From the IMG/VR virus record IMGVR_UViG_3300033074_000977, positions 9,729 through 73,728 of that record: a DNA stretch of 64,000 nt. One strand, 5' to 3'. The position numbers and the translations under genes were made by a program. Of this stretch, positions 1-14,324 are shown one piece after another; the first letter of the stretch is position 1, and the number at the start of each line of letters is the position of its first letter. This DNA is from a virus (lineage: Duplodnaviria; Caudoviricetes). The notes under the pieces were generated by a model. The model was not told where the DNA came from. It was given only the letters and a program-made list of their open reading frames with translations, and searched no databases.

Positions 1-69
1 GCTGCATCGGGAGTTGCGGAGAGTGGCGGCTGGGTCAGCTACGACAATAACTGAGGAGGTATATTAACG

Positions 70-285
70 ATGCCCAGACAAGCTAAACCAACCCCAAGCG
101 CAACTACAACCACAGTCTACGTGTTGCGTAACAAATACATTGTAATGATCGAAGCTGTTACTACCGATAAAGTAGTAGCAGCCGCGTGGGAGCAGTCTGA
201 CGATTACCGATATAGCGTGCCATTGATAGTGGATGACCCTGCCGCGTTGAAAGCTGTTAAACAACTCATCAAGGAGGCTAAGTAG
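70..285 (+). CDS. small early hypothetical protein (71 aa)
   Basis: ATG preceded by GAGGAGG RBS; starts MPRQAK like the next gene. Confidence 0.8.
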   Translation: MPRQAKPTPSATTTTVYVLRNKYIVMIEAVTTDKVVAAAWEQSDDYRYSVPLIVDDPAALKAVKQLIKEAK

Positions 286-287
286 CT

Positions 288-698
288 ATGCCCAGACAAG
301 CTAAACAGTTCATCCCGTGGTCGCAGCGGCAGCTATTACCCAGCGAGGAAGATCTACGTGTACTCGCAGCTTCTTTGTTACAGGACTGTCCCAGATTACT
401 GGCAATCCCCGTCCCTACTACAGCACGCGTGCAGTGGTATTATAACGGGCCGCTGCAACTGGAGGCACTTTCACCGACCATTCACGCCCTACTATACGGT
501 CGCCAACTTAAATCCGCCCCCCTGCACCCAGGTCGTACTGACACTTGGCACCGAGGTTTGCAGCTTGCTACCGACGTAGACTTCACGGATCCCGGTTGTG
601 CTGTGTGGTGGGAGAGGGAGTTAGCCGCGTGTGCAAGGACAGTGGGTGTGGAGTTACGAGTTCGAGTTCAAATCGTAAACTTAACTAAAGGAGAATAA
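288..698 (+). CDS. hypothetical protein (136 aa)
   Basis: ATG with AAGGAGG upstream, 2 nt after the previous stop; starts MPRQAK. Confidence 0.8.
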   Translation: MPRQAKQFIPWSQRQLLPSEEDLRVLAASLLQDCPRLLAIPVPTTARVQWYYNGPLQLEALSPTIHALLYGRQLKSAPLHPGRTDTWHRGLQLATDVDFTDPGCAVWWERELAACARTVGVELRVRVQIVNLTKGE

Positions 699-704
699 CT
701 ATCT

Positions 705-866
705 ATGCGCTACATCCCTAAAACCCTTCCCACCATGCCAGCCGGTCAATGGGCTGTTTGGGACACTAAATTTGAACGCTGGCTGGTCTACGGAGGTGAG
801 CCACCTATTCCAACCAACACCTGGGAGGTAATTAACCAGCGGTGTCAGGAGTTAAATAAAGGATAA
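705..866 (+). CDS. small hypothetical protein (53 aa, MRYIPKTLPT...QELNKG)
   Basis: Translated by hand (below ORF-track cutoff); AAGGAG upstream; fills the gap between neighbours exactly. Confidence 0.65.
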   Translation: MRYIPKTLPTMPAGQWAVWDTKFERWLVYGGEPPIPTNTWEVINQRCQELNKG

Positions 867-868
867 CT

Positions 869-1306
869 ATGGACTACAAAGATGCTTTAATTGCAGCCGG
901 TGCCGAAGTACTGGCTTACGAAACTTTCGGCAGCTACCAGGGTGACTGGTGGGCGAAGGTTAACTACGAAGGCAAACAGTTCTGGGTTAGGGGATCATAT
1001 GGTTCATGCTCAGGGTGTGATGCATTGCAACATGACTTTGGTTGGAGGCTATCAGCTGGCTGTGAAGATCATGAATACACCTACGATGACAAAACCATTG
1101 CGGCGTGTTCAGCTTGTCAGGCAGTGTTAGCGGACAACGAGGGCAAGTTTGCAGCCTTTGGCAAGGGTTACTTAACCGACGAAATCTATGACCAAGCAGG
1201 CGCGGAGGCGAAGGCTGCTGAGAACCTGGATTGGGATCAAGATGCCCGCCAGATGTGGGACTTTTTGCGTACAAATTCCATTGACAGCCTGCCCGTCATC
1301 AAGTAA
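869..1306 (+). CDS. phage hypothetical protein with Cys motifs (GSYQGDW...GSYGSCSGCD, CxxC)
   Basis: 145-aa ORF, AAGGA RBS, possible metal-binding cysteines. Confidence 0.75.
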   Translation: MDYKDALIAAGAEVLAYETFGSYQGDWWAKVNYEGKQFWVRGSYGSCSGCDALQHDFGWRLSAGCEDHEYTYDDKTIAACSACQAVLADNEGKFAAFGKGYLTDEIYDQAGAEAKAAENLDWDQDARQMWDFLRTNSIDSLPVIK

Positions 1307-1309
1307 ACT
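1281..1309 (+). promoter_or_regulatory. sigma70-type promoter TTGACA-N17-TAAACT containing a TTGAC-N9-GTCA(T) palindrome
   Basis: Read directly; near-copy of 6010-6038; upstream of the ParB-like gene. Confidence 0.7.
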
Positions 1310-1386
1310 GCATCCCGTGAAATCAAACTAACTGGTTCAACCGTCTAGGTAAACCAATTCAACTTTAACAACTTAAACGAGGTCAT

Positions 1387-2367
1387 ATGGAAACTGCAAC
1401 TGCAACCGCGCCTGTGAAACAAACCTACATCCCAGGCCGCGAATACACCTACTCCGCCGACGATCTACTCATCCCCGAGAAAGGGGATCCGCTGTTCATC
1501 GAAGGCCGTACCAACTCCAACGAGGGGGTAGATAAACTCGAAGCTTCAATGAAAGATCAAGGCTGGGGGAATATCCCACCGGTGTTGGTGATTGAAGTCC
1601 AGCCCGGTCAATTCAAAGTCGTGGCCGGGATCCGCCGCACGAAAGCCGCGCGCAAAACCAACACCCCCGCACAGATTCGTGTGCTGGATCCGGGTATGCC
1701 GGTGACTGAGCAATTGTCGCTCAACATCGAGGAAAACGAAAATCGGACAGACACCAATGCCATTGCTAAGGCGCACAGCTTTCAAAGCTTTGTCACCGAA
1801 TACGTCAAGCAGGTACTTACTGAGGAGTTCCCGGACGCTACCGAATACACCGCGAAGGCCATTGCGAAAGCCACTGTCCAGGCCAAGAAAGTCTTAGGTC
1901 TGCGGCTGAAGCTCACCGCTCAAACCGTGGATGAATATCTCCAGTTGGTGAATCTTATCCCCGCCGCCCGTAAAGCTGTCGCAGAAGGTACACTAACCCG
2001 CACCGCAGTGATCGACCGTGGCGCGGGGTTGACCCGGATGCTCAAGGAGGATGGTACACCGGATGTGGAGAAGCAAACCGCTGCGTTGGAGAAGCTGATG
2101 AAGCATAGCGAGGCTGCGGGGGGTAAGACTGTGAGCCGTGCGGCTGCTAAGCAAGCTGCCACCACCGAAGCAGTTGGTTACAAACCATCCGCCTGGGAGA
2201 TTCGTCAAATGACTGTCAACATGGAAGAAGCTGGTGAGTATGCTGAACAGCTGGCATTGATCAACTTCCTGCGTGGTGATCTGACGCTGCGCACTGCGAA
2301 GAAGCGGTTGCCCTGGTTGAAGGATGTGTTCGTGGCGAAGGCGGGGCCGGGGGCGGCGGAGGAGTAA
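1387..2367 (+). CDS. ParB/Srx-family nuclease-domain protein
   Basis: PPVLV...VVAGIRRTKAA and NIEENENRTD motifs typical of the ParB N-terminal domain, followed by an HTH-like region. Confidence 0.8.
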   Translation: METATATAPVKQTYIPGREYTYSADDLLIPEKGDPLFIEGRTNSNEGVDKLEASMKDQGWGNIPPVLVIEVQPGQFKVVAGIRRTKAARKTNTPAQIRVLDPGMPVTEQLSLNIEENENRTDTNAIAKAHSFQSFVTEYVKQVLTEEFPDATEYTAKAIAKATVQAKKVLGLRLKLTAQTVDEYLQLVNLIPAARKAVAEGTLTRTAVIDRGAGLTRMLKEDGTPDVEKQTAALEKLMKHSEAAGGKTVSRAAAKQAATTEAVGYKPSAWEIRQMTVNMEEAGEYAEQLALINFLRGDLTLRTAKKRLPWLKDVFVAKAGPGAAEE

Positions 2368-2473
2368 CCGGTGGAAGATGCGGATATACTGTTAACAATC
2401 ATAGCCTGTGTAGTGGTATTAGTAATCGGTAGCTGGCTGGTCAGAGTCACCTCCGATAAATCCACCCGGTTGC

Positions 2474-2503
2474 GTTGAGCTAAGTTAAGCTAAGTTGAGC
2501 TAA
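2474..2503. repeat. tandem repeat GTTRAGCTAA x3
   Basis: gttgagctaa-gttaagctaa-gttgagctaa, intergenic. Confidence 0.85.
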
Positions 2504-2662
2504 GCAGCTGCCGAAACCGTGCCCCTCCCAGCTGCTAACTGCCCGGGAGTCAGTACCTTACGCACCAGCTAGGCAACTGTGGTAAGGTCGTGTTAAACTG
2601 GCTCCCGTTGCAACGATGTGTGACTAACGAAGTTAATTAACTAACCAAGGAGATAAAACACA

Positions 2663-2842
2663 ATGCCCAAATACAACGTAAGTTTGACCAATGTGAAACC
2701 CGGTAAAGATGGCAAGTTGCCCGAGCCGGTAGTGATCGAAGCTCCCGACGCGCCTGCTGCTAAGGCTAAAGCGATTGCCCAGCTGAAGCCGGAAGTGAGT
2801 CAGGATGTGGAGGTGGTTGAAGTGGTCGAAGCTACGGCCTAG
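2663..2842 (+). CDS. small hypothetical protein (59 aa, MPKYNVSLTN...)
   Basis: Translated by hand; AAGGAG RBS; stop lies 15 nt before tRNA-Trp. Confidence 0.75.
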   Translation: MPKYNVSLTNVKPGKDGKLPEPVVIEAPDAPAAKAKAIAQLKPEVSQDVEVVEVVEATA

Positions 2843-2857
2843 ACTTATCCACTGTGT

Positions 2858-2930
2858 AGGAGCGTCGGTTAATTGGCTAAACCCCTGGATTCCAAACCCA
2901 GTACTCAGAGTTCGAGTCTCTGCGCTCCTG
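2858..2930 (+). tRNA. trnW: tRNA-Trp(CCA), 3' CCA not encoded
   Basis: Acceptor AGGAGCG/CGCTCCT, D arm GGTT..TGG..AACC, anticodon loop TTCCAAA (CCA at 2892-2894), T arm CAGAG-TTCGAGT-CTCTG. Confidence 0.9.
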
Positions 2931-2935
2931 TTGGT

Positions 2936-3065
2936 AGGGCAATGGCGGAACTGGTAGACGCGCAGGATAATACAGGAAAGCGGGAAGCTGTCTAGTTAGT
3001 TAATAGCTAACTAGGCGGGCCAGATAAAACTCTTCCCATTGTGGGTTCAAATCCCACTTGCCCTG
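2936..3065 (+). ncRNA. tRNA-like RNA with the anticodon/variable region replaced by a ~79-nt structured insert
   Basis: Acceptor AGGGCAA/TTGCCCT, Leu/Ser-type D arm GCGGAACTGGTAGACGC, T arm GTGGG-TTCAAAT-CCCAC; no canonical anticodon arm. Confidence 0.7.
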
Positions 3066-3690
3066 TTAACCCCACCCAAGCTCTTTAACATAGTTATCCT
3101 TATCAACCCCATCCGGGGCAACCCATTGGGGGAGTGATAGCTTACTTAACGGGCGGGAAAACAACAACGTCAACAACAATCATTCGCTGGAACTCTGACC
3201 AACCGATAAGCATCCTAGGGTGACAGCACACGAGTTTGATTGTGGGGTGGGGTTATTCGATTATGGCAGCTATAACCTAGCTAGGTAGTGGTAGTCATGA
3301 CACCGCTAAAGCTGCCACCAACATTAGCAGCACGTTCGCTATACTGCTAATCATAGACCCAGGGTAGCTAGTTAAACCTTGTTATACCCCGCGTATCTAT
3401 GTAGCTCTTTGTCTTGTAGGATTTACACAGCAAGCTTTAAGGTACTTAACCAATCAGCGTAATCAACTTGACTGATGCAGAAACCGTAGCGTCTGGTGAA
3501 ATTGAATTGTCTTGAGGAAGTTGTTCAACGATAGCCAGCTGCCACAGTAGAATGCTGACGTGCAAGGGTCGTCAATTTGGAGTAGATAGAGGATTAGTAT
3601 TGATTACATTGATTGGTGTGACGGTACTCGGACGCTTACTATAATTATCTTCAAGACGTTTGTGCGAACCCCTGGATCTAACTCCGGCTG
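3066..3690 (+). ncRNA. candidate large structured ncRNA, GOLLD/ROOL-like; boundaries approximate
   Basis: No ORF of 60 aa or more on either strand; several complementary segments; directly follows tRNA elements; GTAGAAT..TGCAAG..TGGAGTAG segment recalled as GOLLD-like but not verified. Confidence 0.5.
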
Positions 3691-3779
3691 ATTGTTACTA
3701 AATCAGGTTTACTTTACCTGTCTTACTGGTTTAGCGAACAGCGGACATTGAAGTTGGCTCCGGGGGTTATTTACCCGGC

Positions 3780-3806
3780 TACCTAACTTACCTAACTTAC
3801 CGAACT
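3780..3806. repeat. tandem repeat TACCKAACT x3
   Basis: tacctaact-tacctaact-taccgaact. Confidence 0.75.
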
Positions 3807-4057
3807 TGCCAATGGCAACACCTAACCATAACTCCAACGCAAAGTTAATCCAGCAGCTTCGTGCAGTAAAACCTGTCCGTCCAGTCAAACCTTCCATTCC
3901 AGCTATCCACTGCCCAGAATGCGGTGAGCATATTGCGGGTAAGTTGGCCAAGCTGTATGTACCCGAGCTGATTAAACTCGGTCGGATGCTGGTGCGGAAG
4001 GTTAACAAGGCCAACAAAACGGCGGCGGCGGCGGCGAATGGTGACGGGGGTGGGTAG
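3806..4057 (+). CDS. small CxxC zinc-finger-like protein
   Basis: HCPECGEH motif; basic protein; start uncertain (TTG 3806 or ATG 3812). Confidence 0.6.
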   Translation: MPMATPNHNSNAKLIQQLRAVKPVRPVKPSIPAIHCPECGEHIAGKLAKLYVPELIKLGRMLVRKVNKANKTAAAAANGDGGG

Positions 4058-4157
4058 CCTGATCACAGGATCCAGGGATCCGTTTATCTCCCCATACCCC
4101 TGGCAGCTTAGCTCAAAGCTTATACCCTAATCGTCTCACAAGATAAGGATATGAACA

Positions 4158-5789
4158 GTGGCGATGATAACTTTTGATGCACATGCACAGAACTCTTCCA
4201 TAGTAACTCAGGAGGTTGAAGGAAATGACAGCAATGGCAGTAATAGCTATAGTGACAATCTTAATGGGGGTATTGGCTGTACTAGCGCTTGTAGCAATGC
4301 AGCTACAATACTTGGCGAATATCCTAGCGAGCCGGATAGATCTAGTGAACATCAACCTGGATCTGATCCACAACGCCCAGGAACGGCAGTTGTTGGAATT
4401 CAAGCAGTGGAACGAAACCCTGGAGGGGATCAACCAGGGCTATCCATCCTCTCCCCCGCCACCCTCGCAGCCCAACGCTTAATCGCCCAGATCCACCACC
4501 TCGCCGACCAGTACTGGGAAGAACCTGACCACGAAGCCTTAAACGTAGTACTAGCCTTCATCGCCAGCTACTTCCTGCACGAACGCAACCCCTTATGGTT
4601 ACACATCGTAGGCGAATCCAGCAGCGGTAAAACCGAACTCGGTATGGCACCGGTCGCGCTGGACTATGCCGAATTCCACCACCTTGATGATCTCACCTCC
4701 AACACCTTACTATCCGGCCTCACCAAAGGTAAAGATTCCGGTAAACGCAACAGCTTCCTGCACCGGGTAGGGATCTTCGGCTTAGTCTACCAGGAGGACT
4801 TCACTACCTTCCTCGAAAAAGACGAGCGGATGGTCGGTGCAGTGGCAGGGCAGTTACGTAAAGTCTACGACGGTCAGCTTACCAAGGAAACCGGCGTGGA
4901 GACTCGTGACGGTAACGGTGGCTGGCAAGGTAGGATAAGTTGGATCACAGCTATGACCCCGGGCGCTGAACGGAAATGGGTGCGCCATAACCCAATGGGT
5001 GAGCGGTTCAGTATCGTGCGCTGGCGGGCCGCGCGGAATCACGAGGCCGTAAGTAAGAAGGTATTACTCCAGTCAGCGGTTGAAGCCAAGCTCACCTACC
5101 TAGACGCTGATAAACAAATGAACCAGCAGATCGCTGGCCCCAGGAAATGGATCGGTTGGCTGACGCAGATGCTGATAGAAGGTGAGCGATATGCTGGGCA
5201 GCTACCTGGGAATGGGATTAACGAGGGGTTATTACGAGAGCTGGTGAATCAACTGCAAGGGTTGGATTTAACTCCGAAGCCGGATAGCCCTAGTGAACGG
5301 CTGGTGTATGACGGTGGATTGTACGCGCTGGCTGAGGTGGTAACGCAGCTGCGCACGATACCTAACCGTCCAGACGGCAGGAATATAGGTCAAGTGTTGG
5401 ATAGGGAAAGCTCCGGTAGGTTGCAGCACCAGCTGATTAAGGTCGCCCGCGGGTGGGCCTACTTACACAGGCGCGAGGTAGAGGCTGCGGATATGCGGCT
5501 GGTGCAGCGAGTCGCTGAGGACAGCATACCGATCAGTAAGAAACCTATCGTGGATGCGCTGTATAAAGCGGGCCGGTCGGGTATGTGGATGGATGTGGAT
5601 AGTTTGCGGCAGGAAGCTGGGTATCAGACTCAAGCGGCGCTGGTGTGGCAGTTGCAGGAATTGCTGGCGGTGGGGGTAGTGATGACCAGTGATGGGGATA
5701 TACAGCGGAACTGGGAGAATCCTTACACGGAATGGAAATTAACTGAGCAGTTCGAGGAACTGTGGAGGAAAGGGGGATTGGGGAAGTAA
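4158..5789 (+). CDS. AAA+/MCM-like P-loop ATPase, putative replicative helicase
   Basis: Walker A GESSSGKT, Walker B-like VYQEDF, Arg-finger-like GERF, winged-helix-like C-terminus; low-complexity N-terminus so the start is uncertain. Confidence 0.7.
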   Translation: MAMITFDAHAQNSSIVTQEVEGNDSNGSNSYSDNLNGGIGCTSACSNAATILGEYPSEPDRSSEHQPGSDPQRPGTAVVGIQAVERNPGGDQPGLSILSPATLAAQRLIAQIHHLADQYWEEPDHEALNVVLAFIASYFLHERNPLWLHIVGESSSGKTELGMAPVALDYAEFHHLDDLTSNTLLSGLTKGKDSGKRNSFLHRVGIFGLVYQEDFTTFLEKDERMVGAVAGQLRKVYDGQLTKETGVETRDGNGGWQGRISWITAMTPGAERKWVRHNPMGERFSIVRWRAARNHEAVSKKVLLQSAVEAKLTYLDADKQMNQQIAGPRKWIGWLTQMLIEGERYAGQLPGNGINEGLLRELVNQLQGLDLTPKPDSPSERLVYDGGLYALAEVVTQLRTIPNRPDGRNIGQVLDRESSGRLQHQLIKVARGWAYLHRREVEAADMRLVQRVAEDSIPISKKPIVDALYKAGRSGMWMDVDSLRQEAGYQTQAALVWQLQELLAVGVVMTSDGDIQRNWENPYTEWKLTEQFEELWRKGGLGK

Positions 5790-6001
5790 TGGATATTTAT
5801 AAATTGTGTAAGTGTCTCTGGGCAGTGGCTACGTTTTTAGTAATCTATGGTATGTACGGTACCTTAGCACAGGGTTATCCGTTATCCACGAAGTTGATTG
5901 ATCTGCCTGCGGATCTGGGGCTGGCTCTAGCGATTTCAATAGGGCTGAATACGATAGTCGTGATAACCTTGTCGCTGCATGGTATGGGAAGCGACGACTA
6001 A
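5790..6001 (+). CDS. small membrane protein (~70 aa)
   Basis: Two hydrophobic segments; ATG immediately after the previous TAA. Confidence 0.65.
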
Positions 6002-6009
6002 TTTCTCAA

Positions 6010-6038
6010 TTGACAGCCTGTCCGTCAACTGATATACT
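6010..6038 (+). promoter_or_regulatory. sigma70 consensus promoter TTGACA-N17-TATACT with TTGAC-N9-GTCAA palindrome
   Basis: Read directly from the sequence. Confidence 0.85.
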
Positions 6039-6048
6039 TACAACCATT

Positions 6049-6363
6049 ATGAGCAATCAATCCGGCGCTAGGACCGCCCTTACAACCATCCTTACTTCGT
6101 CAAGTGCTGCCGTGCCAACAACCACCGACCAACGCGTCCGGGTCTTTCGACTCCGCGTACTCAACTGCACTGACTTCGACCATTACACCACACTCTACTG
6201 CCGCGCGGGTCGTAACCAATTCGAGCACGACATCTACTTCAACCCTGACACCGAGGAGAAGTTATTCGATGCGGTGCGGGCCGGGAAGGTGCCGTTGGAT
6301 AAGGTATCGGTAGGGGAGGTGATTGGGTGGCTGATGGAGCGGGGGATTGAGAGTTTAGGTTAG
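6049..6363 (+). CDS. hypothetical protein (104 aa), probably leaderless
   Basis: The ORF-track TTG start at 6010 is the -35 box; the ATG at 6049 lies 10 nt after the -10 box with no RBS. Confidence 0.7.
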   Translation: MSNQSGARTALTTILTSSSAAVPTTTDQRVRVFRLRVLNCTDFDHYTTLYCRAGRNQFEHDIYFNPDTEEKLFDAVRAGKVPLDKVSVGEVIGWLMERGIESLG

Positions 6364-6376
6364 GGAGTGTAGTGTT

Positions 6377-6583
6377 ATGACTCCGTATCAAAAGTTAAAA
6401 GCTAGACGCGAGCGTTTGAAAGCCGAAGGCCGCTGCATAGATTGCACAGAGGATCGGGGAGCTGATGGAACATCAACCCGTTGCCGTAAATGTGCGGATA
6501 AGTGCAACCACGCAACGGGCATAAAACCCGCAGCGAATCTGTACGTATGTTTCGATGATGTAGATAGATTAGTTACCAAGTAA
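6377..6583 (+). CDS. small zinc-finger protein
   Basis: CIDC...CRKC; GGGAG RBS. Confidence 0.7.
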   Translation: MTPYQKLKARRERLKAEGRCIDCTEDRGADGTSTRCRKCADKCNHATGIKPAANLYVCFDDVDRLVTK

Positions 6584-6596
6584 GGAGATTCACCTG

Positions 6597-8021
6597 ATGT
6601 TAGCGATTAGAAAAGAACTACCTGTGATCTACACAGACCGTAGCCGGATTGAAACCGGCCAGCGCTGCCTACGTAAGCGCTATTGGGAGTACCATTACCA
6701 ACTGCCCACAATGCTACACGCTGGGCTACAACCCGCTAAGCCAGCGCTGGAGCTGACGGTTGGGTCGGCGGTGCATAAGGGGGTGGAGCTGTTACTTCAA
6801 GCAGCCATGACCTTGGATTACACACCCCCACTAAATAGTATAGATTTAGATACGGCTATCTTTGCGGGGTTGGCCGACTTCGATGCAGCTTGGCAACCCT
6901 GGCTGGAGCAATCCGATGCCTTCCAGGATAGCAGTGAAAGTAACCAGCTGCTATCCTACCAACTCACCGAAGCACGCGCGCTAATAGAAGCTTTAATCGC
7001 AGCGTTCTACTACGCACCGACAGGCTTACAACTACTCACAGAAAACTACGAGATCCTGGCAGTTGAACAGGAGATCGCGGTACCCCTTACCGACTGGCTG
7101 GTATTGAACTCTCGCCCGGATGCTATCCTGCGTCACCGTCGCACCGGGCAGTACTTCCCGTGGTCGTTGAAGACCGCTAAGTCATGGGATGATCGTACCA
7201 ACCAGCAGGCTGATGTAGATAACCAAGGGATCAGCGAGAGTGTTAGCACCGAATACTGGTTGAATCGCTATCCCGCTCCGCAACTCGAAGGTGCTGGTGG
7301 AGATTACACCGTCGCGGGGGTGCTGATGTGCTACCTCATCAAAGGCGAAAAACGCGCGGACGACTTCGGTATCTACCGCACCAACTCTCCGTTGATCCGC
7401 CCCTACTTCAACACCGGTGCCTTCGACCCTACCGACCTAGCCCAGTACGCACCGTCCAATAAATGGACTTGCACTGAGGAACACGAATGGAAAGGGGCGC
7501 GATTTGGCTACACAGTCAACGGCAAGAACGGTTGCCCGGGTGGTAAGAACCATATGCGCGGGGATAGCTGGCAGCAGGTGAATATCTGGGAACAGGGTGT
7601 GCGTGTGCAGGATTGGGTGAAGGAGCTATTCGAGCAGCAGCCTGAGCTGGGTGAGAAGTTCGTGCAGGTGCCTGCACCGTATCGGAGGGAGCGGGAGGAG
7701 CTGGAAAGCTGGATAGCCGAGCGAATCTTCCAGGAGCGTAGACTGGCGGATGGGACTGAAGTGATACATACTGGGTTATTATCAGATGTTACTACCATTC
7801 CTGGGTATGAAACTAGAAGTATCCTAGCTTCGCACTTTCCGATGTCACGCACGAGCTGCGTGTACCCTTGGAAGTGCAATGCACACTCTCTGTGCCATGC
7901 GGGAGGAGGTAGTAGATTGCTAGATCCAAACCTATTCTATGGCGAAAATTTGCTGGAATCTGAAAGTATCCCACAGGAGTTAGGTTATGCTTCACGAGTC
8001 CCAAACCATCCCGAAACCTAA
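6597..8021 (+). CDS. Cas4/RecB-like PD-(D/E)xK exonuclease with an Fe-S cysteine set
   Basis: N-terminal QRCLRKRYW, E-x-E-I, RPD, LKT and C-terminal C-x5-C-x5-C; AAGGAG RBS. Confidence 0.8.
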   Translation: MLAIRKELPVIYTDRSRIETGQRCLRKRYWEYHYQLPTMLHAGLQPAKPALELTVGSAVHKGVELLLQAAMTLDYTPPLNSIDLDTAIFAGLADFDAAWQPWLEQSDAFQDSSESNQLLSYQLTEARALIEALIAAFYYAPTGLQLLTENYEILAVEQEIAVPLTDWLVLNSRPDAILRHRRTGQYFPWSLKTAKSWDDRTNQQADVDNQGISESVSTEYWLNRYPAPQLEGAGGDYTVAGVLMCYLIKGEKRADDFGIYRTNSPLIRPYFNTGAFDPTDLAQYAPSNKWTCTEEHEWKGARFGYTVNGKNGCPGGKNHMRGDSWQQVNIWEQGVRVQDWVKELFEQQPELGEKFVQVPAPYRREREELESWIAERIFQERRLADGTEVIHTGLLSDVTTIPGYETRSILASHFPMSRTSCVYPWKCNAHSLCHAGGGSRLLDPNLFYGENLLESESIPQELGYASRVPNHPET

Positions 8022-8736
8022 ATTTGAACTATTTGTTGGTGCGAAAATAGGTCGCCTCACCATTATTGGTGAACGTGTTAGGTATAAAGAGACATTTAAG
8101 CACCCTTGTAGATGTATTTGCGGTAAAGAAGTGCTGATAATTCAGCAAAATCTTCGTACCGGGAAGGCCCAGTCATGTGGGTGCAGAGCAATTGAGGGTC
8201 GCACAAAACACGGACATCGAATATCCGGTAAGCGAGATCCAGAGTACTATACCTGGGTGTCAATGAAAGATCGTTGTTTGAATCCACGCAATAAACAATA
8301 CGCTAACTATGGCGGGCGCGGAATATCTGTGTGCGAAGAATGGGTCGCTAGCTATGAAGAATTCTTAAATGCTGTGGGTAGACGGCCCTCTAATAAACAC
8401 TCCTTAGATAGATACCCTAACAACGATGGTAACTACGAACCCGGGAATGTGCGTTGGGCCACTCAAACTGAACAAGCCCGTAATAGGCGAAATAATGTAC
8501 TAATCGCATTCAGGGATCAAGCAAAGTGTTTGATGGATTGGTGCAGGGAATTCAACTTGCCTTTTCCGGTCGTGCGTGTGCGGTTGAGTGAACTTGGCTG
8601 GACCATAGAAGCTGCACTTACGACTCCCATAGATGCGGTTAATAGATCAGACAGCTCAAGAAAGAGTTGGATAACTAGAAAGGCTAACTTAGCCAAGTTA
8701 AAAGAGAGCGAGGTAACAACCGATGTCAACAGCTAA
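7987..8736 (+). CDS. HNH-type homing endonuclease-like protein
   Basis: CxC/SCGC N-terminus, YGGRGISVCEEW, SLDRYPNNDGNYEPGNVRWAT. Confidence 0.85.
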   Translation: MLHESQTIPKPKFELFVGAKIGRLTIIGERVRYKETFKHPCRCICGKEVLIIQQNLRTGKAQSCGCRAIEGRTKHGHRISGKRDPEYYTWVSMKDRCLNPRNKQYANYGGRGISVCEEWVASYEEFLNAVGRRPSNKHSLDRYPNNDGNYEPGNVRWATQTEQARNRRNNVLIAFRDQAKCLMDWCREFNLPFPVVRVRLSELGWTIEAALTTPIDAVNRSDSSRKSWITRKANLAKLKESEVTTDVNS

Positions 8737-9031
8737 GAACATAATGTCTATCACCTCCCTACGCCGCACCATCCAGCGTATGGAGCAACTAACCGCACCC
8801 GTCGCCGGAACCAACTCCGAACGTCGCAAGCGTCATCGCCGCTGGCAGATGTTACTAGGTAAACTAGGCGAGGAAGCTAAGGCGCTCGCGCATCAACAGG
8901 TGTTAGACATCTTCTACAGCAGCGGCTCCATCGACGCACAAACTGCCTGTAATATGTACATCTACGGAAAGGAAGCAATCGAAAATGCCAAACCCATCGG
9001 AACTGAACCAACACATCCTGCAAGTAGCTGA
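8723..9031 (+). CDS. hypothetical protein (102 aa)
   Basis: GAGG RBS; overlaps neighbours in operon style. Confidence 0.65.
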   Translation: MSTAKNIMSITSLRRTIQRMEQLTAPVAGTNSERRKRHRRWQMLLGKLGEEAKALAHQQVLDIFYSSGSIDAQTACNMYIYGKEAIENAKPIGTEPTHPASS

Positions 9032-9329
9032 CCAGCAGCACATCGACAACCCAGCTCACTTGCTGGTCGAATCAATGGCCTCGCCGCAACTCGTGGCCAA
9101 CTCAGAAGCTGGTCGGAATAACTTCGACGCGGAGGCTATTCGGAAACTCAAGGGCGCGGGCCATAACTACGACGATACGTTAACCTTGGAGCAGAACTTA
9201 GCGAAGCTGCACCCCAGTAAATCTAAACCGGAAGACCTGGAGCGGTTGAACAGTCAGCTGGGGAACACTGTCGTCGTAGATGAACACATCTCAGGCGGCG
9301 GCGGGAACTTTTGGACTGCGCGCTGGTAG
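8985..9329 (+). CDS. hypothetical protein (114 aa)
   Basis: AAGGAAG upstream of the ATG; typical codon style. Confidence 0.6.
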   Translation: MPNPSELNQHILQVADQQHIDNPAHLLVESMASPQLVANSEAGRNNFDAEAIRKLKGAGHNYDDTLTLEQNLAKLHPSKSKPEDLERLNSQLGNTVVVDEHISGGGGNFWTARW

Positions 9330-9336
9330 TTTAGCT

Positions 9337-9444
9337 ATGCCAGCTACTATCTGTGAACTCAAAGGACACGCCTACCGATTACTCAAAGGATTCGGCAGGT
9401 ACTACTGGAAGTGCGACCGTTGTGGGAAAGTACTAAATAACTAA
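9337..9444 (+). CDS. micro zinc-finger protein (35 aa, MPATICELKGH...WKCDRCGKVLNN)
   Basis: Translated by hand; C-x4-H...C-x2-C pattern; fills the intergenic gap. Confidence 0.6.
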   Translation: MPATICELKGHAYRLLKGFGRYYWKCDRCGKVLNN

Positions 9445-9458
9445 GGAGACTAACCCAA

Positions 9459-10472
9459 ATGCCCGAAGTAACAGAACAACAAAAAATCAATAACTCCCTA
9501 ATGATGTATAGTTATAGTGGCTGCGGCAAGACACGCGAATGCGGTGCTATCGCAGATTATTATTACTTCAAAACAGGTGGCAAGCGCGTTCGCTACATCA
9601 CTGCCGACACAGGCGGCTGGCAGCCGATTCAACCTTACATCGACGCCGGAATGATCGACGCTGTTAGTATCGCCGGACACCCGGACTTTCTCCATGTCCT
9701 ACGCGGGTTATCAGAAGGCTACTGGCTAACCACTGAAGGTAAGTTGATCCCTGAGAAGGGCCGCCTAGCTGATACTGGGTTAATCATCATCGAATCCCTC
9801 ACCTCCATCTGCCAGGAGATCATGGGTTACTACCAGGATAACCGCTTGAAATTCGCGCAGGATCTGGTAGCGGTGCAGCAAGTGCGCTCCCACGACCCTG
9901 AGTTGGATAAGATTCTTGGGGCACAGACGATTTCAGCAGTAGCACAGGCGCATTATTCAGGGTTGCGGGATGAATTGTTTGGTAGGATCCGAGATTTCCA
10001 GCGACTAATTGCACAGGGCGTAGATGGATTGGTGTTCACCTCGCACGAGAGTTCAGGGCAGGAGTCAATCGCCGGGATCAAACGCACCCAGCTGGGTATT
10101 GGCGCATTGGGTCAAGCGATTAGCCCAGCCCTACCGCAGCGCTTCGGGGATCTGATCCACCTGGACACGATCACGGTGAATAACAAGCTGGAGTATCGGG
10201 CGTACTTCCAACCACACCAGGATGCTGAGCTGCGCCGTGAATGGCCTGCTCGGTTGCGCACGGATGCCAGCTTGAACAAAGCGATACTTGAACATCCCGA
10301 TTTCAAGCAGGGGTATTTGGTACTGACTGATGAGGCGGATCCCACTCAGCGGCAGGGGATTACCAAGCTGTTGAGATTCAGGGATCAGTTGCAGAGTAAC
10401 GCGGCGGATAAGATTCGTGCACGGATGGCTGCGGCGAAGACAGCTACTGAAGGAGCTGTTACTAATGGCTAG
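9459..10472 (+). CDS. AAA_24/Sak4-like RecA-fold ATPase (recombinase)
   Basis: Walker A SGCGKT, Walker B IIIES, FTSHE motif; lies next to the exonuclease and SSB-like genes. Confidence 0.75.
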   Translation: MPEVTEQQKINNSLMMYSYSGCGKTRECGAIADYYYFKTGGKRVRYITADTGGWQPIQPYIDAGMIDAVSIAGHPDFLHVLRGLSEGYWLTTEGKLIPEKGRLADTGLIIIESLTSICQEIMGYYQDNRLKFAQDLVAVQQVRSHDPELDKILGAQTISAVAQAHYSGLRDELFGRIRDFQRLIAQGVDGLVFTSHESSGQESIAGIKRTQLGIGALGQAISPALPQRFGDLIHLDTITVNNKLEYRAYFQPHQDAELRREWPARLRTDASLNKAILEHPDFKQGYLVLTDEADPTQRQGITKLLRFRDQLQSNAADKIRARMAAAKTATEGAVTNG

Positions 10473-11774: not shown

Positions 11775-14324
11775 ATGGAAACCCAAGAAATCATCGACCA
11801 TTTCGAGCGGCTCCGCTGCACTGCCAAGTACCCTGTCTTCTACTTAACTGGGCAGGCAGGCACCGGCAAAACGTACACCATCAAACAAGCTATCGAGCAA
11901 CAACCGAACTTCGCGCAGCTCGCAGCATCCACCGGTATCGCAGGCGTGAACCTGGGCACCACCACCATCAACCAAGTGCTGAAATATTTCAACACTGACT
12001 CGCTGCTGGACTCCTACCAATCCGGGCAGCTGACTATGAACTTACGTAAAGTGCGCAAGTTCAACCGCTTTCTGGTGATCGACGAAGCATCAATGATCCC
12101 CTATCAACAGCTGGATATATTCCTCTGGGCGTTGGATGAGATCAATGCTGATGTGGAGGATGACGCGCGGTTAGGTTTAATCCTCATCGGAGATTTTTGC
12201 TTGGGTTACGGCACTAAAGTGATGATGGCCGATGGTAGCCTAAAAGTTGTTGAAGACATTAAAGCAGGCGATCAAGTAATGGGACCGGATAGCAAGCCCC
12301 GCAATGTGCTCAGAACTACGACAGGATTGGATACTTTGTATCAAGTTAACCAGACTAACGGTGATTCTTATGTAGTTAATTCTAAACACCCAATTGTACT
12401 GCGGCGTAGTAAGGATGGTAAAGCTTCGTGCGATGGGCGTTGGCCCAGATACCCTGACTACGCTGATAACTTAACGTTAACTGCGCCGGAACTGCTGTTA
12501 AAATCCGATAAATTTCGTTCGTGTTTCTTTGGGTATAAAGCAGGCGTGGTTAAGTTTCCTGTGCGACAGGCACCTACTTTAGATCCGTATTTTGTAGGCT
12601 TATGGCTAGGCGATGGCGACAAAGATGCGCCTCGAATAACTACGGCTGACCCGGAAATTGTAGATTACTTGGAATCCTTGTCGAATGTGTACGGATTGAA
12701 TCTCACAATTAGTGGGTGGGATAGAACATCCGCAGTACGGATAGGAATTACACATGGGAAATCCAAGGGTAATATTCCCAACCCTATACGAACCAAACTA
12801 AGCGCGTTAAGCTTGTTCAATAGCAAGCACATACCTGATGATTATTTGTATGCCATAGAAGCTGCTAGGTTGGATCTACTTGCAGGACTTATAGATTCTG
12901 ACGGAAGCTTTACAGGTAATCGTTACACCATTGCTTGTGGGATAGAAAAGTTGGCTCACCAAATAAAACAACTAGCTGATCAATTAGGTTTCAGGTCTAC
13001 TATTCAACCAGTAAAAAGCGGGCCATACGCCAACAATCCAAATAAGTCTATGTGGAGGATTTCAATTGGGGGTGACACTTGGAGAATCCCCTGTAAGGTT
13101 GCCAGAAAAGTATCCAACCCTAGATCACTTGGACGCACGCGCATAGAGTCTAAGGTTTCAATTGAACGGTTAGGGCGCGGTTTGTATGCAGGATTTGAAA
13201 CCGATGGTGATCATTTGTTTCTGCTGGCAGACGGTACTGTTACCCATAACTGCCAGCTCCCCCCAGTCCCGGGCAATCTCATCGTCGCGGGCAAACCAGT
13301 CCTAACCAAAGATGGTCAGCGCAACGTCAAGGAACCTACCCCCTGGGCGTTTAAGTCTGAGTTGTGGAGTAGGTTCGAGGAAGAAGGCCATATTATTAAG
13401 CTGGAAAAGATCTACCGACAATCCGATCCGACCTTCCTCAATGGTATTAACGCCATCCGCAAGGGACTGGGTAAATCAGGAGTGAGTTACCTCGCCGCCG
13501 CTGGGGTTGAGTTCACGCGCGAGCTGGATAACTACTTCGACGGCACCACCATCGTAGGCAAGAACGAGGAAGTAGATCGGATTAACAAGATCCGGTTGAA
13601 CCAGCTGGAAGGTAAGACCCAGCAGCTACCTAGTACACGCTGGTGGGCAGGGGAAGTGTTGGGCTGGAAACAACCCAGCGAATGGCAGTACATCCCCGAG
13701 CAGTTGGAGTTAAAGCTGGGTGCGTATGTGATGATATTGAGTAACTTGAAGGATCCGCTGACAGGGCGGATGGAAGCTGCGAATGGAGATTGTGGGTGGG
13801 TCAGGGAGATCACTCAGCTGCGTGTGCCTGTGTATGGTGCGCCAGATCCTGAGTCTGATGATCCCACAGCACCTCCTACGATTATCTCAGAGGAGATCCA
13901 GTGGGTGGTGCGCGTAGAGTTAGTCCGCCGCCCTGATGAACTCGTCACCATCCCAGTAGTCAAACGCAACATCGAATCTCGGCATGACGTTGACGACGTA
14001 CTTAAAACACATCCTAAATTCAACCGCGACGAAGCTGGCAACCCTAAGAAGATCCGTAATTCAATGGGTCGGTCGGTCTGGTGTTTAGGCACGATTGAAT
14101 ACTTCCCATTGCGGTTGGCTTACGCTACTACTACACACAAGTCGCAAGGGTTGTCATTGGACAGGATCCAGATTGATCCGCGCGGGCACTTTATGGGACA
14201 ACCGGCTATGGCGTATGTAGCGTTGAGTCGCGGGCGCACGCCGGAAGGGATTAAGATCGTGGGGAATAGTAGTTTATTTGCGGAGCGGGTGCGGCTTGAT
14301 GAGGCTGTGCGGCGCTTCGTTTAG
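11775..14324 (+). CDS. SF1B (Pif1/RecD/Dda-like) helicase containing an intein
   Basis: GQAGTGKT, VIDEASM, GDF|C-QLPPV, FPLRLAYATTTHKSQGLS, YVALSR. Confidence 0.9.
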   Translation: METQEIIDHFERLRCTAKYPVFYLTGQAGTGKTYTIKQAIEQQPNFAQLAASTGIAGVNLGTTTINQVLKYFNTDSLLDSYQSGQLTMNLRKVRKFNRFLVIDEASMIPYQQLDIFLWALDEINADVEDDARLGLILIGDFCLGYGTKVMMADGSLKVVEDIKAGDQVMGPDSKPRNVLRTTTGLDTLYQVNQTNGDSYVVNSKHPIVLRRSKDGKASCDGRWPRYPDYADNLTLTAPELLLKSDKFRSCFFGYKAGVVKFPVRQAPTLDPYFVGLWLGDGDKDAPRITTADPEIVDYLESLSNVYGLNLTISGWDRTSAVRIGITHGKSKGNIPNPIRTKLSALSLFNSKHIPDDYLYAIEAARLDLLAGLIDSDGSFTGNRYTIACGIEKLAHQIKQLADQLGFRSTIQPVKSGPYANNPNKSMWRISIGGDTWRIPCKVARKVSNPRSLGRTRIESKVSIERLGRGLYAGFETDGDHLFLLADGTVTHNCQLPPVPGNLIVAGKPVLTKDGQRNVKEPTPWAFKSELWSRFEEEGHIIKLEKIYRQSDPTFLNGINAIRKGLGKSGVSYLAAAGVEFTRELDNYFDGTTIVGKNEEVDRINKIRLNQLEGKTQQLPSTRWWAGEVLGWKQPSEWQYIPEQLELKLGAYVMILSNLKDPLTGRMEAANGDCGWVREITQLRVPVYGAPDPESDDPTAPPTIISEEIQWVVRVELVRRPDELVTIPVVKRNIESRHDVDDVLKTHPKFNRDEAGNPKKIRNSMGRSVWCLGTIEYFPLRLAYATTTHKSQGLSLDRIQIDPRGHFMGQPAMAYVALSRGRTPEGIKIVGNSSLFAERVRLDEAVRRFV
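12198..13250 (+). mobile_element. 351-aa intein with LAGLIDADG homing endonuclease
   Basis: Starts CLGYGT, ends THN before a Cys +1; blocks GLWLGDG and LAGLIDSDG; AT-richer than its flanks. Confidence 0.92.

Follow-up and report, generated by a model that had tools for sequence, protein, structure and literature searches.

What occupies the long gene-free stretch that directly follows the tRNA-Trp gene and a tRNA-like gene of an uncultivated wastewater phage? A 73.7-kb phage record of IMG/VR (IMGVR_UViG_3300033074_000977), rated complete by CheckV, carries the stretch in its rightward early/replication arm; bases 9729-73728 of that record, 64,000 nucleotides (nt), were analysed and are called the window here, and positions refer to it unless a relative is named. 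To our knowledge, only a handful of large bacterial or phage non-coding RNAs of unknown function have been described (GOLLD, ROOL, OLE and raiA), and the habit of GOLLD and ROOL of adjoining phage tRNA genes is unexplained. An earlier sequence-only reading had proposed a structured non-coding RNA at 3066-3690, either GOLLD- or ROOL-like or a new class. Our analysis bears out a large structured non-coding RNA locus adjoining the phage tRNA genes, with covariation among relatives and with parts of the stretch present in RNA libraries. We read 3066-3775 as a non-coding RNA locus of the + strand, a chain of independently folding modules (A to F, Table 1) that is transcribed with the tRNAs, and put the probability of this reading at roughly 0.6; that the stretch is a functional structured RNA locus of the + strand at all we consider highly probable.

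Extent, coding potential and folding

The sequence segments quoted in the sequence-only reading are all present at their quoted positions, and no open reading frame (ORF) of at least 60 amino acids (aa) lies within 3066-3690 on either strand, the longest being 30-39 aa. Comparison by tblastx among the syntenic gaps of relatives gave no protein-level conservation, and a census of small ORFs found none common to different lineages. The element is longer than proposed, as the gene-free stretch continues beyond 3690 to ~3775 and measures ~710 nt.

Folding energies were compared with those of shuffled sequences. The z-score of the whole stretch was modest (−2.25 on the + strand, −3.07 on the − strand). 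Dinucleotide shuffling on the + strand gave −3.7 for module A (3066-3257; −2.2 on the − strand) and −4.3 for 3661-3775, which contains module F (−1.8 on the − strand), and three coding controls ranged from −0.5 to −2.1. The folding signal is thus clearer in modules A and F than in the stretch as a whole. An 11-nt identity between tRNA-Trp (2880-2890) and 3667-3677 is within chance for a 2-kb region.

A conserved core and a closed domain in six lineages

Relatives were found through homologues of the flanking proteins in metagenome assemblies, and the contigs fall into six lineages: the window with L003, L034 and L044 (neighbouring protein ~86% identical); L039-L043; L080; L002 (70%); L005 (61%); and L004 with L035 and L036 (56%). 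In each of the six, 0.7-1.2 kb without genes separates the 59-aa gene and tRNAs on one side from the 81-aa and 543-aa genes on the other; more distant relatives (L006, 34%) lack such a gap. Sequencing runs containing the stretch are of metagenomes from wastewater, activated sludge, freshwater and air. A blastn search with 2300-4300 gave no match among 50,697 phage records, and neither single proteins nor a protein alignment found relatives in IMG/VR or in 185,579 prokaryote genomes. Two DNA patterns of the core formed by modules C and D returned only chance or coding matches from IMG/VR, with at most 3 of 5 positions of helix P1 pairing, and a tighter pattern gave zero matches in the prokaryote genomes. 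Because the pattern and protein searches were empty, the RNA family is known only from metagenome contigs; it is rare, with six lineages, all of them uncultivated.

Exactly one copy of the C/D core (~85 nt) was found per genome in every lineage, both by regular expression and with a model of the core (R1). Counted on ten sequences, 10 of its 19 pairs were changed on both sides while 93% remained paired, a result reached in none of 500 shuffles; slid controls were 33-42% paired. Helix P1 occurs as CATAGA/TCTATG, as CCCCGG/CTGGGG (with one G-U pair) and as CTTAGG/CCTAAG, and an A-C mismatch in L039 is restored to G-C in L043. The pair 3360-3391, which extends hairpin P2, is C-G everywhere except in L080, where a compensatory change has made it U-A; the P2 hairpin itself is variable in sequence. 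In module C the top of the hairpin is exchanged, with CAG..CTG in the window and GG(G)..CC(C) in L003, L002, L005 and L004, and the TTAGCAG/CTGCTAA pairing proposed there belongs to the predicted fold and has comparative support. Central and near-invariant, this core is the leading candidate for the site of function.

Module A has its own comparative signal. Its closing helix (3067-3077/3245-3255) starts 2 nt past the tRNA-like gene and is matched in 1 of 500 shuffles; the closing helices of L002, L005 and L004 (13, 16 and 15 bp) are matched in 0 of 500 each. Thus four lineages have closing helices of 11-16 bp placed 1-6 nt after the 3′ end of a tRNA or tRNA-like gene, and their distal sequences differ. 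A covariance model of module A built from the close group (R2) recovered the whole module in L080 (E value 9.6e-14) and in L002 (0.0024). It did not reach L005 or L004 at E values up to 1, so that module A is recognised in those two solely by its closing helix and short motifs. In an alignment fitted to R2, which flatters structure, 13 of 52 pairs were changed on both sides with 97.5% of cells paired, compared with 3.6 ± 1.4 pairs in shuffles (0 of 500 reached the observed count) and 0-2 in slid controls. Covariation among homologues, which the sequence-only reading had named as a check, is therefore present in both A and C/D.

In module A, the proposed pairing of AACCCCACCC with GGGTGGGGTT is part of the predicted fold and has comparative support. 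The A/C-rich linker is unpaired and variable in length, with ACGTCA units expanded in L039 and a part deleted in L034. The proposed pairing of GCTTA with TAAGC is not supported, as TAAGC sits in the conserved predicted loop of the 3′ hairpin. The sequence of this loop, AACCGATAAGC, recurs in four lineages; ACCGATAAGC is also found in L039, L042, L080 and L005, with a variant in L003 and L078.

Strand and presence in RNA libraries

The + strand is indicated by the G-U pairs in comparatively supported helices (the closing helices of L004 and L005, P1 in L005, and many in module F), by the better + strand z-scores of modules A and F, and by gene orientation. Contigs from RNA libraries of four studies cover 3078-3254, 3083-3252, 3335-3683, 3358-3508, 3481-3729, 3545-3742, 3092-3321 and 3387-3731. 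In two of the studies contigs end, with no loose ends, at 3254 and 3252, where the closing helix of module A has its 3′ edge. This hints weakly at an RNA end, but a contig from another RNA library (X3) continues across 3252-3254. Of the transcript that the sequence-only reading called for, the contigs establish that parts of the stretch are present in RNA libraries, but not its strand, ends or level. Metatranscriptome runs X17, X19 and X20 held no contig on the flanking genes (window 1-10000), which is not evidence, since the runs were chosen for holding the stretch.

Could the conserved stretch instead act as DNA? It might be an origin of replication, or a partition or operator region for the ParB-like and the primase-like 543-aa proteins, in which inverted repeats act as cruciforms or protein-binding sites and transcription is incidental or primes replication. 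The location between the ParB_N-like gene and the replication genes would suit such an element, as would the G+C content, the lowest in the first 10 kb (0.43-0.45 vs 0.50-0.57), the tandem 9- and 10-mers that flank the region, and module E, a 250-bp imperfect palindrome equally stable on both strands. In addition, AGCTGCCA is enriched, with 11 copies in the window against 2.5 expected and 5 of the 11 within 2154-4108. However, two of these copies are mutated in the close relative L034, parts of the stretch occur in RNA libraries, and helices stay paired by means of compensatory changes and of G-U pairs, whose counterparts on the opposite strand would be A-C mismatches. DNA-binding sites would conserve sequence and not pairing. 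We regard a DNA element as quite improbable for the locus; it could be what module E alone represents.

Exchange of modules and of the adjoining tRNA genes

Module B differs from A and C/D in that its site is variable. The proposed pairing of TGGCAGCT with AGCTGCCA (3310) is in the predicted fold, but is only weakly above chance (24 of 500 shuffles), and the helix is not above chance in L002, L005, L034 or L039; the alternative AGCTGCCA partner at 3537-3544 found no comparative support. The site holds 47 nt in the window and ~280-290 nt of other RNA in L034, L039 and L043, while L042 keeps two thirds of that RNA (~190-290 nt overall in these four), and the replacement has its own helices and compensatory changes. 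L078 (1258-1866), and likewise L079, carries at this site, after module A, a 202-aa DNA-methyltransferase-like gene (phrog_757, 3.9e-72), and a tRNA occupies the interval between A and C/D in L005. Judged by these replacements, the module B site is a cassette slot, which argues against one continuous fold from A to D.

Exchange extends to the tRNA genes. At 2857-3066 the tRNA content differs among near-identical phages (L003, L034, L039, L042, L078, L080 and L002), the variants being Trp plus the tRNA-like gene, an unassigned tRNA, Thr, Trp plus Pro, Tyr, Trp alone, Ile(aat) and Leu(tag). From within the T arm or the 3′ strand of the acceptor onward the phages share their sequence again, and module A comes next in every case. 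From the sequences, this looks like a cassette swap by recombination in the conserved tRNA 3′ end.

Such swapping of tRNA genes and cassettes among near-identical phages raises the question of whether the stretch is debris of tRNAs or deleted genes left by the exchange, or a small-gene locus of type I toxin-antitoxin kind, in which a highly folded mRNA surrounds the 30-aa ORF at 3552-3644. A Shine-Dalgarno-like GGGGTTATT followed by ATG 3264 opens a frame of only 5 codons, and the 30-aa ORF, which has a hydrophobic tail, is identical in L034. Elsewhere in the genome GG(A)GGTTATT serves as Shine-Dalgarno sequence plus spacer before ATG; at 3250-3266 it precedes only the 5-codon frame, which is not conserved. 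Debris would not be expected to show compensatory pairing and single-copy cores across six lineages, and no tRNA remnants were found in 3066-3775 at E values up to 10. Taken together, we consider both forms of this explanation very improbable. For a type I toxin-antitoxin locus one would expect a conserved small hydrophobic ORF preceded by a ribosome-binding site, together with an antisense RNA. The 30-aa ORF, however, lacks a Shine-Dalgarno sequence, and L039, L002, L005 and L004 are without a counterpart of it.

The 3′ modules and a possible role in cis

Module E has a minimum free energy (MFE) of ~−71 kcal/mol on either strand, with z-scores of −1.5 on the + and −5.0 on the − strand; because the MFE is the same on both, the better − strand z-score reflects base composition. 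Within 3400-3600 close relatives are 96-100% identical, compared with 85-95% in adjacent coding DNA. E has no sequence match in L039-L043, L002, L005 or L004, and covariation therefore says nothing about it. The TGACG/CGTCA pair proposed here appears in the MFE fold and nowhere beyond it.

For module F, RNAalifold on four close relatives gave 42 pairs, many of them U-G, with pairing kept where the sequences differ. A scan for consensus terminators flagged only a small sub-hairpin in F, which ends the locus ~40 nt before the next gene in the window. Plainer terminators occur in relatives, an 11-bp stem followed by UAUUUUUU in L005 and a 13-bp stem followed by U9 in L004.

No Shine-Dalgarno sequence precedes the ATG (3812) of the 81-aa gene, and G-poor, C/A-rich leaders similar to that of the window precede the same gene in L039 and L004. 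The leader with its tandem repeats of TACCTAACT may bind a protein or may signal translation independently of a Shine-Dalgarno sequence. At 2474-2504, 1.3 kb upstream, lie three tandem copies of a 10-mer, GTTGAGCTAA, which is roughly the inverse of TACCTAACT.

These features bear on the possibility that the locus acts in cis, as the 3′ trailer of the tRNA operon and the 5′ leader of the replication genes, with no RNA acting in trans. Processing hairpins of RNase III/E type, a terminator or attenuator in F and a promoter in E would then insulate the tRNA transcript and set expression of the 81-aa and 543-aa genes. Consistent with this possibility, a hairpin and U-run close the locus in every lineage, 40-90 nt ahead of the next gene, the leader of the downstream gene is G-poor and without a Shine-Dalgarno sequence, E is a long rod of the shape of an RNase III substrate, and E and F differ from lineage to lineage, which is frequent in regulatory leaders. 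The sigma-70-like site at 3618-3645 would fit as well, but such sites are at chance level (3 found in the region vs 2.1 expected), and the RNA-library contigs run across it. Moreover, 0.7-1.2 kb is very long for a leader, and it is the universally conserved A and C/D that lie farthest from the regulated gene, whereas the gene-proximal parts vary. The near-invariant unpaired bases of C/D are, in addition, kept across lineages whose flanking proteins are only 56-70% identical. We therefore consider a purely cis-acting locus unlikely.

Relation to GOLLD, ROOL and other known RNAs

A scan with all 4227 Rfam 15 models (cmscan) gave only two tRNA matches, with gathering scores for the whole window and E values up to 10 for 2300-4300. 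Rfam likewise gave only tRNAs in the relatives L002-L005, L034-L037 and L039 (E values up to 5 in four relatives). The proposed membership in GOLLD or ROOL is thus not upheld, as the covariance models find no match, not even a partial one, in the window or its relatives. The region that had been likened to the GOLLD 3′ domain (3547-3690) falls within the part least conserved between lineages and has no blastn match in L039-L043. The fallback of a new class is the better reading, with the change that a chain of separable modules is favoured over a single ornate fold.

GOLLD, which is said to have been described by Weinberg et al. in 2009, shares with the locus its phage origin, its size and its position against tRNA genes. 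GOLLD RNAs are encoded by phages and prophages, often near tRNA islands, are many hundred nt long and can have tRNAs inside them; their 3′ region is universally conserved and their 5′ region less so, and cryo-EM has shown an RNA-only 14-mer nanocage (bioRxiv 10.1101/2024.12.08.627333). The tRNA between A and C/D of L005 is a further likeness. In contrast to GOLLD, the conserved parts of the locus are A and the central C/D while the 3′ part varies, with no match to 3420-3811 in L039-L043, L002, L005 or L004, and the predicted hairpins follow one another in series, with no sign of one continuous ornate fold. ROOL RNAs average 581 nt, lie near tRNAs and in prophages and are possibly co-transcribed with the tRNAs (Weinberg et al. 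2017, PMC5737381). The locus resembles them in phage origin, nearness to tRNAs and comparable size (~710 nt), but it matches no ROOL model, and individual modules can be added, missing or set apart by an intervening gene.

Could the locus be a GOLLD or ROOL so divergent that the Rfam models miss it? The shared habit (phage, beside tRNAs, several hundred nt) would fit, and the tRNA embedded in L005 recalls those sometimes found in the GOLLD linker. However, there were no matches, not even partial ones, at the permissive E values used for the window and four relatives. The variable 3′ part also speaks against GOLLD, and the predicted folds against either family, since hairpins in series and rods make up most of them and junctions number one or two, although MFE prediction cannot see pseudoknots. 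We regard this explanation as exceedingly improbable. The locus is instead a candidate new RNA family that has the genomic habit of GOLLD and ROOL and is a member of neither.

The tRNA cluster of phage T4 offers a different comparison. It yields two stable non-tRNA RNAs of ~120-140 nt (species 1 and 2, or rnaC and rnaD), which are cut from tRNA precursors by tRNA-processing nucleases and whose function is unknown. Modules A and C/D may be viewed in the same way, as beads on a tRNA transcript, with processing presumed; the locus differs in its 0.7-1.2 kb and five modules, and the likeness is one of idea. A published catalogue of phage intergenic structures in IMG/VR contains tRNA-like structures and terminators of 29-151 nt and required at least three regions for each (Fremin et al. 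2023, PMC10690425). The C/D family is probably absent from it, because no further copy of the core came up when IMG/VR was scanned with our two patterns.

Genomic setting

The features of the locus and its neighbours are collected in Table 1. Every gene in the first ~20 kb of the window is on the + strand; farther along lie genes for a family A DNA polymerase and a Dda-like helicase, whereas the opposite arm carries the genes for portal and terminase.

Table 1. Features of the RNA locus and neighbouring genes in the window
Feature	Position	Strand	Remarks
ParB_N-like gene	1387-2367	+	Upstream of the locus
59-aa gene	2663-2842	+	Upstream of the tRNAs
tRNA-Trp (CCA)	2857-2931	+	ARAGORN; Rfam tRNA 50.3 bits; first gene of the RNA cluster
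tRNA-like gene	2936-3065	+	Rfam tRNA 35.3 bits, model 1-71; 3′ end abuts module A
Module A	3066-3257	+	Closed ~190-nt domain: closing helix, long 5′ hairpin, 3′ hairpin, small hairpin
Module A hairpins	5′ ~3080-3155; 3′ ~3186-3225	+	Predicted fold
A/C-rich linker	3157-3182	+	Unpaired in RNAalifold consensus
Conserved loop AACCGATAAGC	3201-3211	+	In 18-nt loop of predicted 3′ hairpin, module A
Module B	3258-3322	+	Short hairpin 3264-3271/3310-3317; variable insertion site
Module C	3323-3351	+	Hairpin; conserved base 3323-3327/3347-3351, exchangeable top; in 6/6 lineages
Module D core	3352-3411	+	P1 3352-3357/3396-3401; P2 hairpin 3360-3391
Module D unpaired bases	CC 3358-3359, CGUA 3392-3395; G3404, UCUU 3406-3409	+	Internal loop (CC, CGUA) and tail (G, UCUU); near-invariant
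Module E	3411-3660	+	~250-nt rod-like imperfect hairpin; arms include 3449-3466/3600-3617
30-aa ORF	3552-3644	+	Hydrophobic C-terminal half; identical in L034
Sigma-70-like match GTGACG-16-TATAAT	3618-3645	+	10/12 consensus positions; 3′ strand of rod E
Module F	3667-3775	+	~100-nt extended hairpin 3667-3768, G-U-rich, then UUAUUUA; terminator-like end
G-poor leader	3776-3811	+	9-mer TACCTAACT x3, tandem repeat 3780-3807; boundary of the locus
81-aa gene	Start ATG 3812	+	Directly downstream of the locus
543-aa P-loop protein gene	After 81-aa gene	+	Some distant homologues with PrimPol/PriCT domains
PD-(D/E)XK nuclease and HNH endonuclease genes	Beyond 543-aa gene	+	Gene order

In the tRNA-like gene a 68-nt insert replaces the anticodon arm, with the acceptor, D and T arms intact, and the gene is not called by ARAGORN. 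Its product could mimic a tRNA or serve as a decoy, or the gene could encode a tRNA with an intron. A comparable inserted tRNA lies at 1596-1712 of L005 (40.1 bits, 117 nt). In sequence that precedes the window (L075, genome 1-9800), positions 4646-4738 hold a class-II tRNA-like gene that scores 39 bits with the tRNA-Sec model, below its gathering score of 47.

The Dda/PIF1-like helicase of the window (11775-14324) has 849 aa, and its middle part matches terminase-type families. Its counterpart in L002 (10692-13190) has Intein_splicing and LAGLIDADG_3 matches, and on these domain matches an intein probably interrupts the helicase there.

Interpretation

Transcription of the locus together with the tRNAs is most likely, because the locus abuts tRNA genes in every lineage, whichever they are (Trp, Thr, Tyr, Pro, Ile or Leu). 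That modules are swapped, lost or separated by a gene favours a string of separately folding RNAs made from the tRNA transcript. Under this reading, RNase P at the tRNA 5′ ends and a single-strand-specific endonuclease would cut the precursor, the latter in the A/U-rich single-stranded spacers that flank the closing helices. Compact, nuclease-resistant RNAs would be released, accumulate and act in trans, with the C/D core as a putative functional centre (a binding or catalytic site) and the other modules as exchangeable accessories. That the locus is processed in this way into separate stable trans-acting RNAs is a tentative proposal, to which we give slightly less than even odds, and what such RNAs might do is a guess: they could assist translation or the supply of tRNAs, or could act as decoys of host nucleases.

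Several points weigh against this reading. The whole-stretch z-score is modest and no better on the + strand than on the − strand, and B, C and D taken alone give only −0.9 on the + strand. The six lineages represent few independent events, the shuffle control takes no account of relatedness among the sequences, and fitting the alignments (A11 and A12) to the model favours structure. Module E and most of F are without covariation support; E folds equally on both strands, as a DNA palindrome would, and contains the promoter-like site. DNA can occur in RNA libraries, and the contigs show neither strand nor ends nor level. Finally, the processing sites and the trans function are our inference.

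A bolder version is that the locus represents a third, unrelated class of large tRNA-linked phage RNA, an RNA-only machine like GOLLD and ROOL in which the near-invariant C/D core, with its CC/CGUA internal loop between two helices that show compensatory changes, would be a new catalytic or ligand- or tRNA-binding motif. We consider this a long shot. If it were true, the core might cut the module chain from the tRNA precursor, or might nucleate an assembly with the modules as spokes.

For the more conservative reading of a modular RNA locus transcribed with the tRNAs, a further family that has the same habit as GOLLD and ROOL, but another sequence and a modular build, would suggest that the link of such RNAs to phage tRNA genes is functional and not an accident of one lineage. 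Such a link could be co-transcription, co-processing or a shared task. The C/D core (~85 nt) and module A (~190 nt) are of a length that suits probing, assays of self-cleavage and of binding, and structural studies, and the swapping of tRNAs and modules among near-identical wastewater and sludge phages is a natural experiment on which parts are dispensable.

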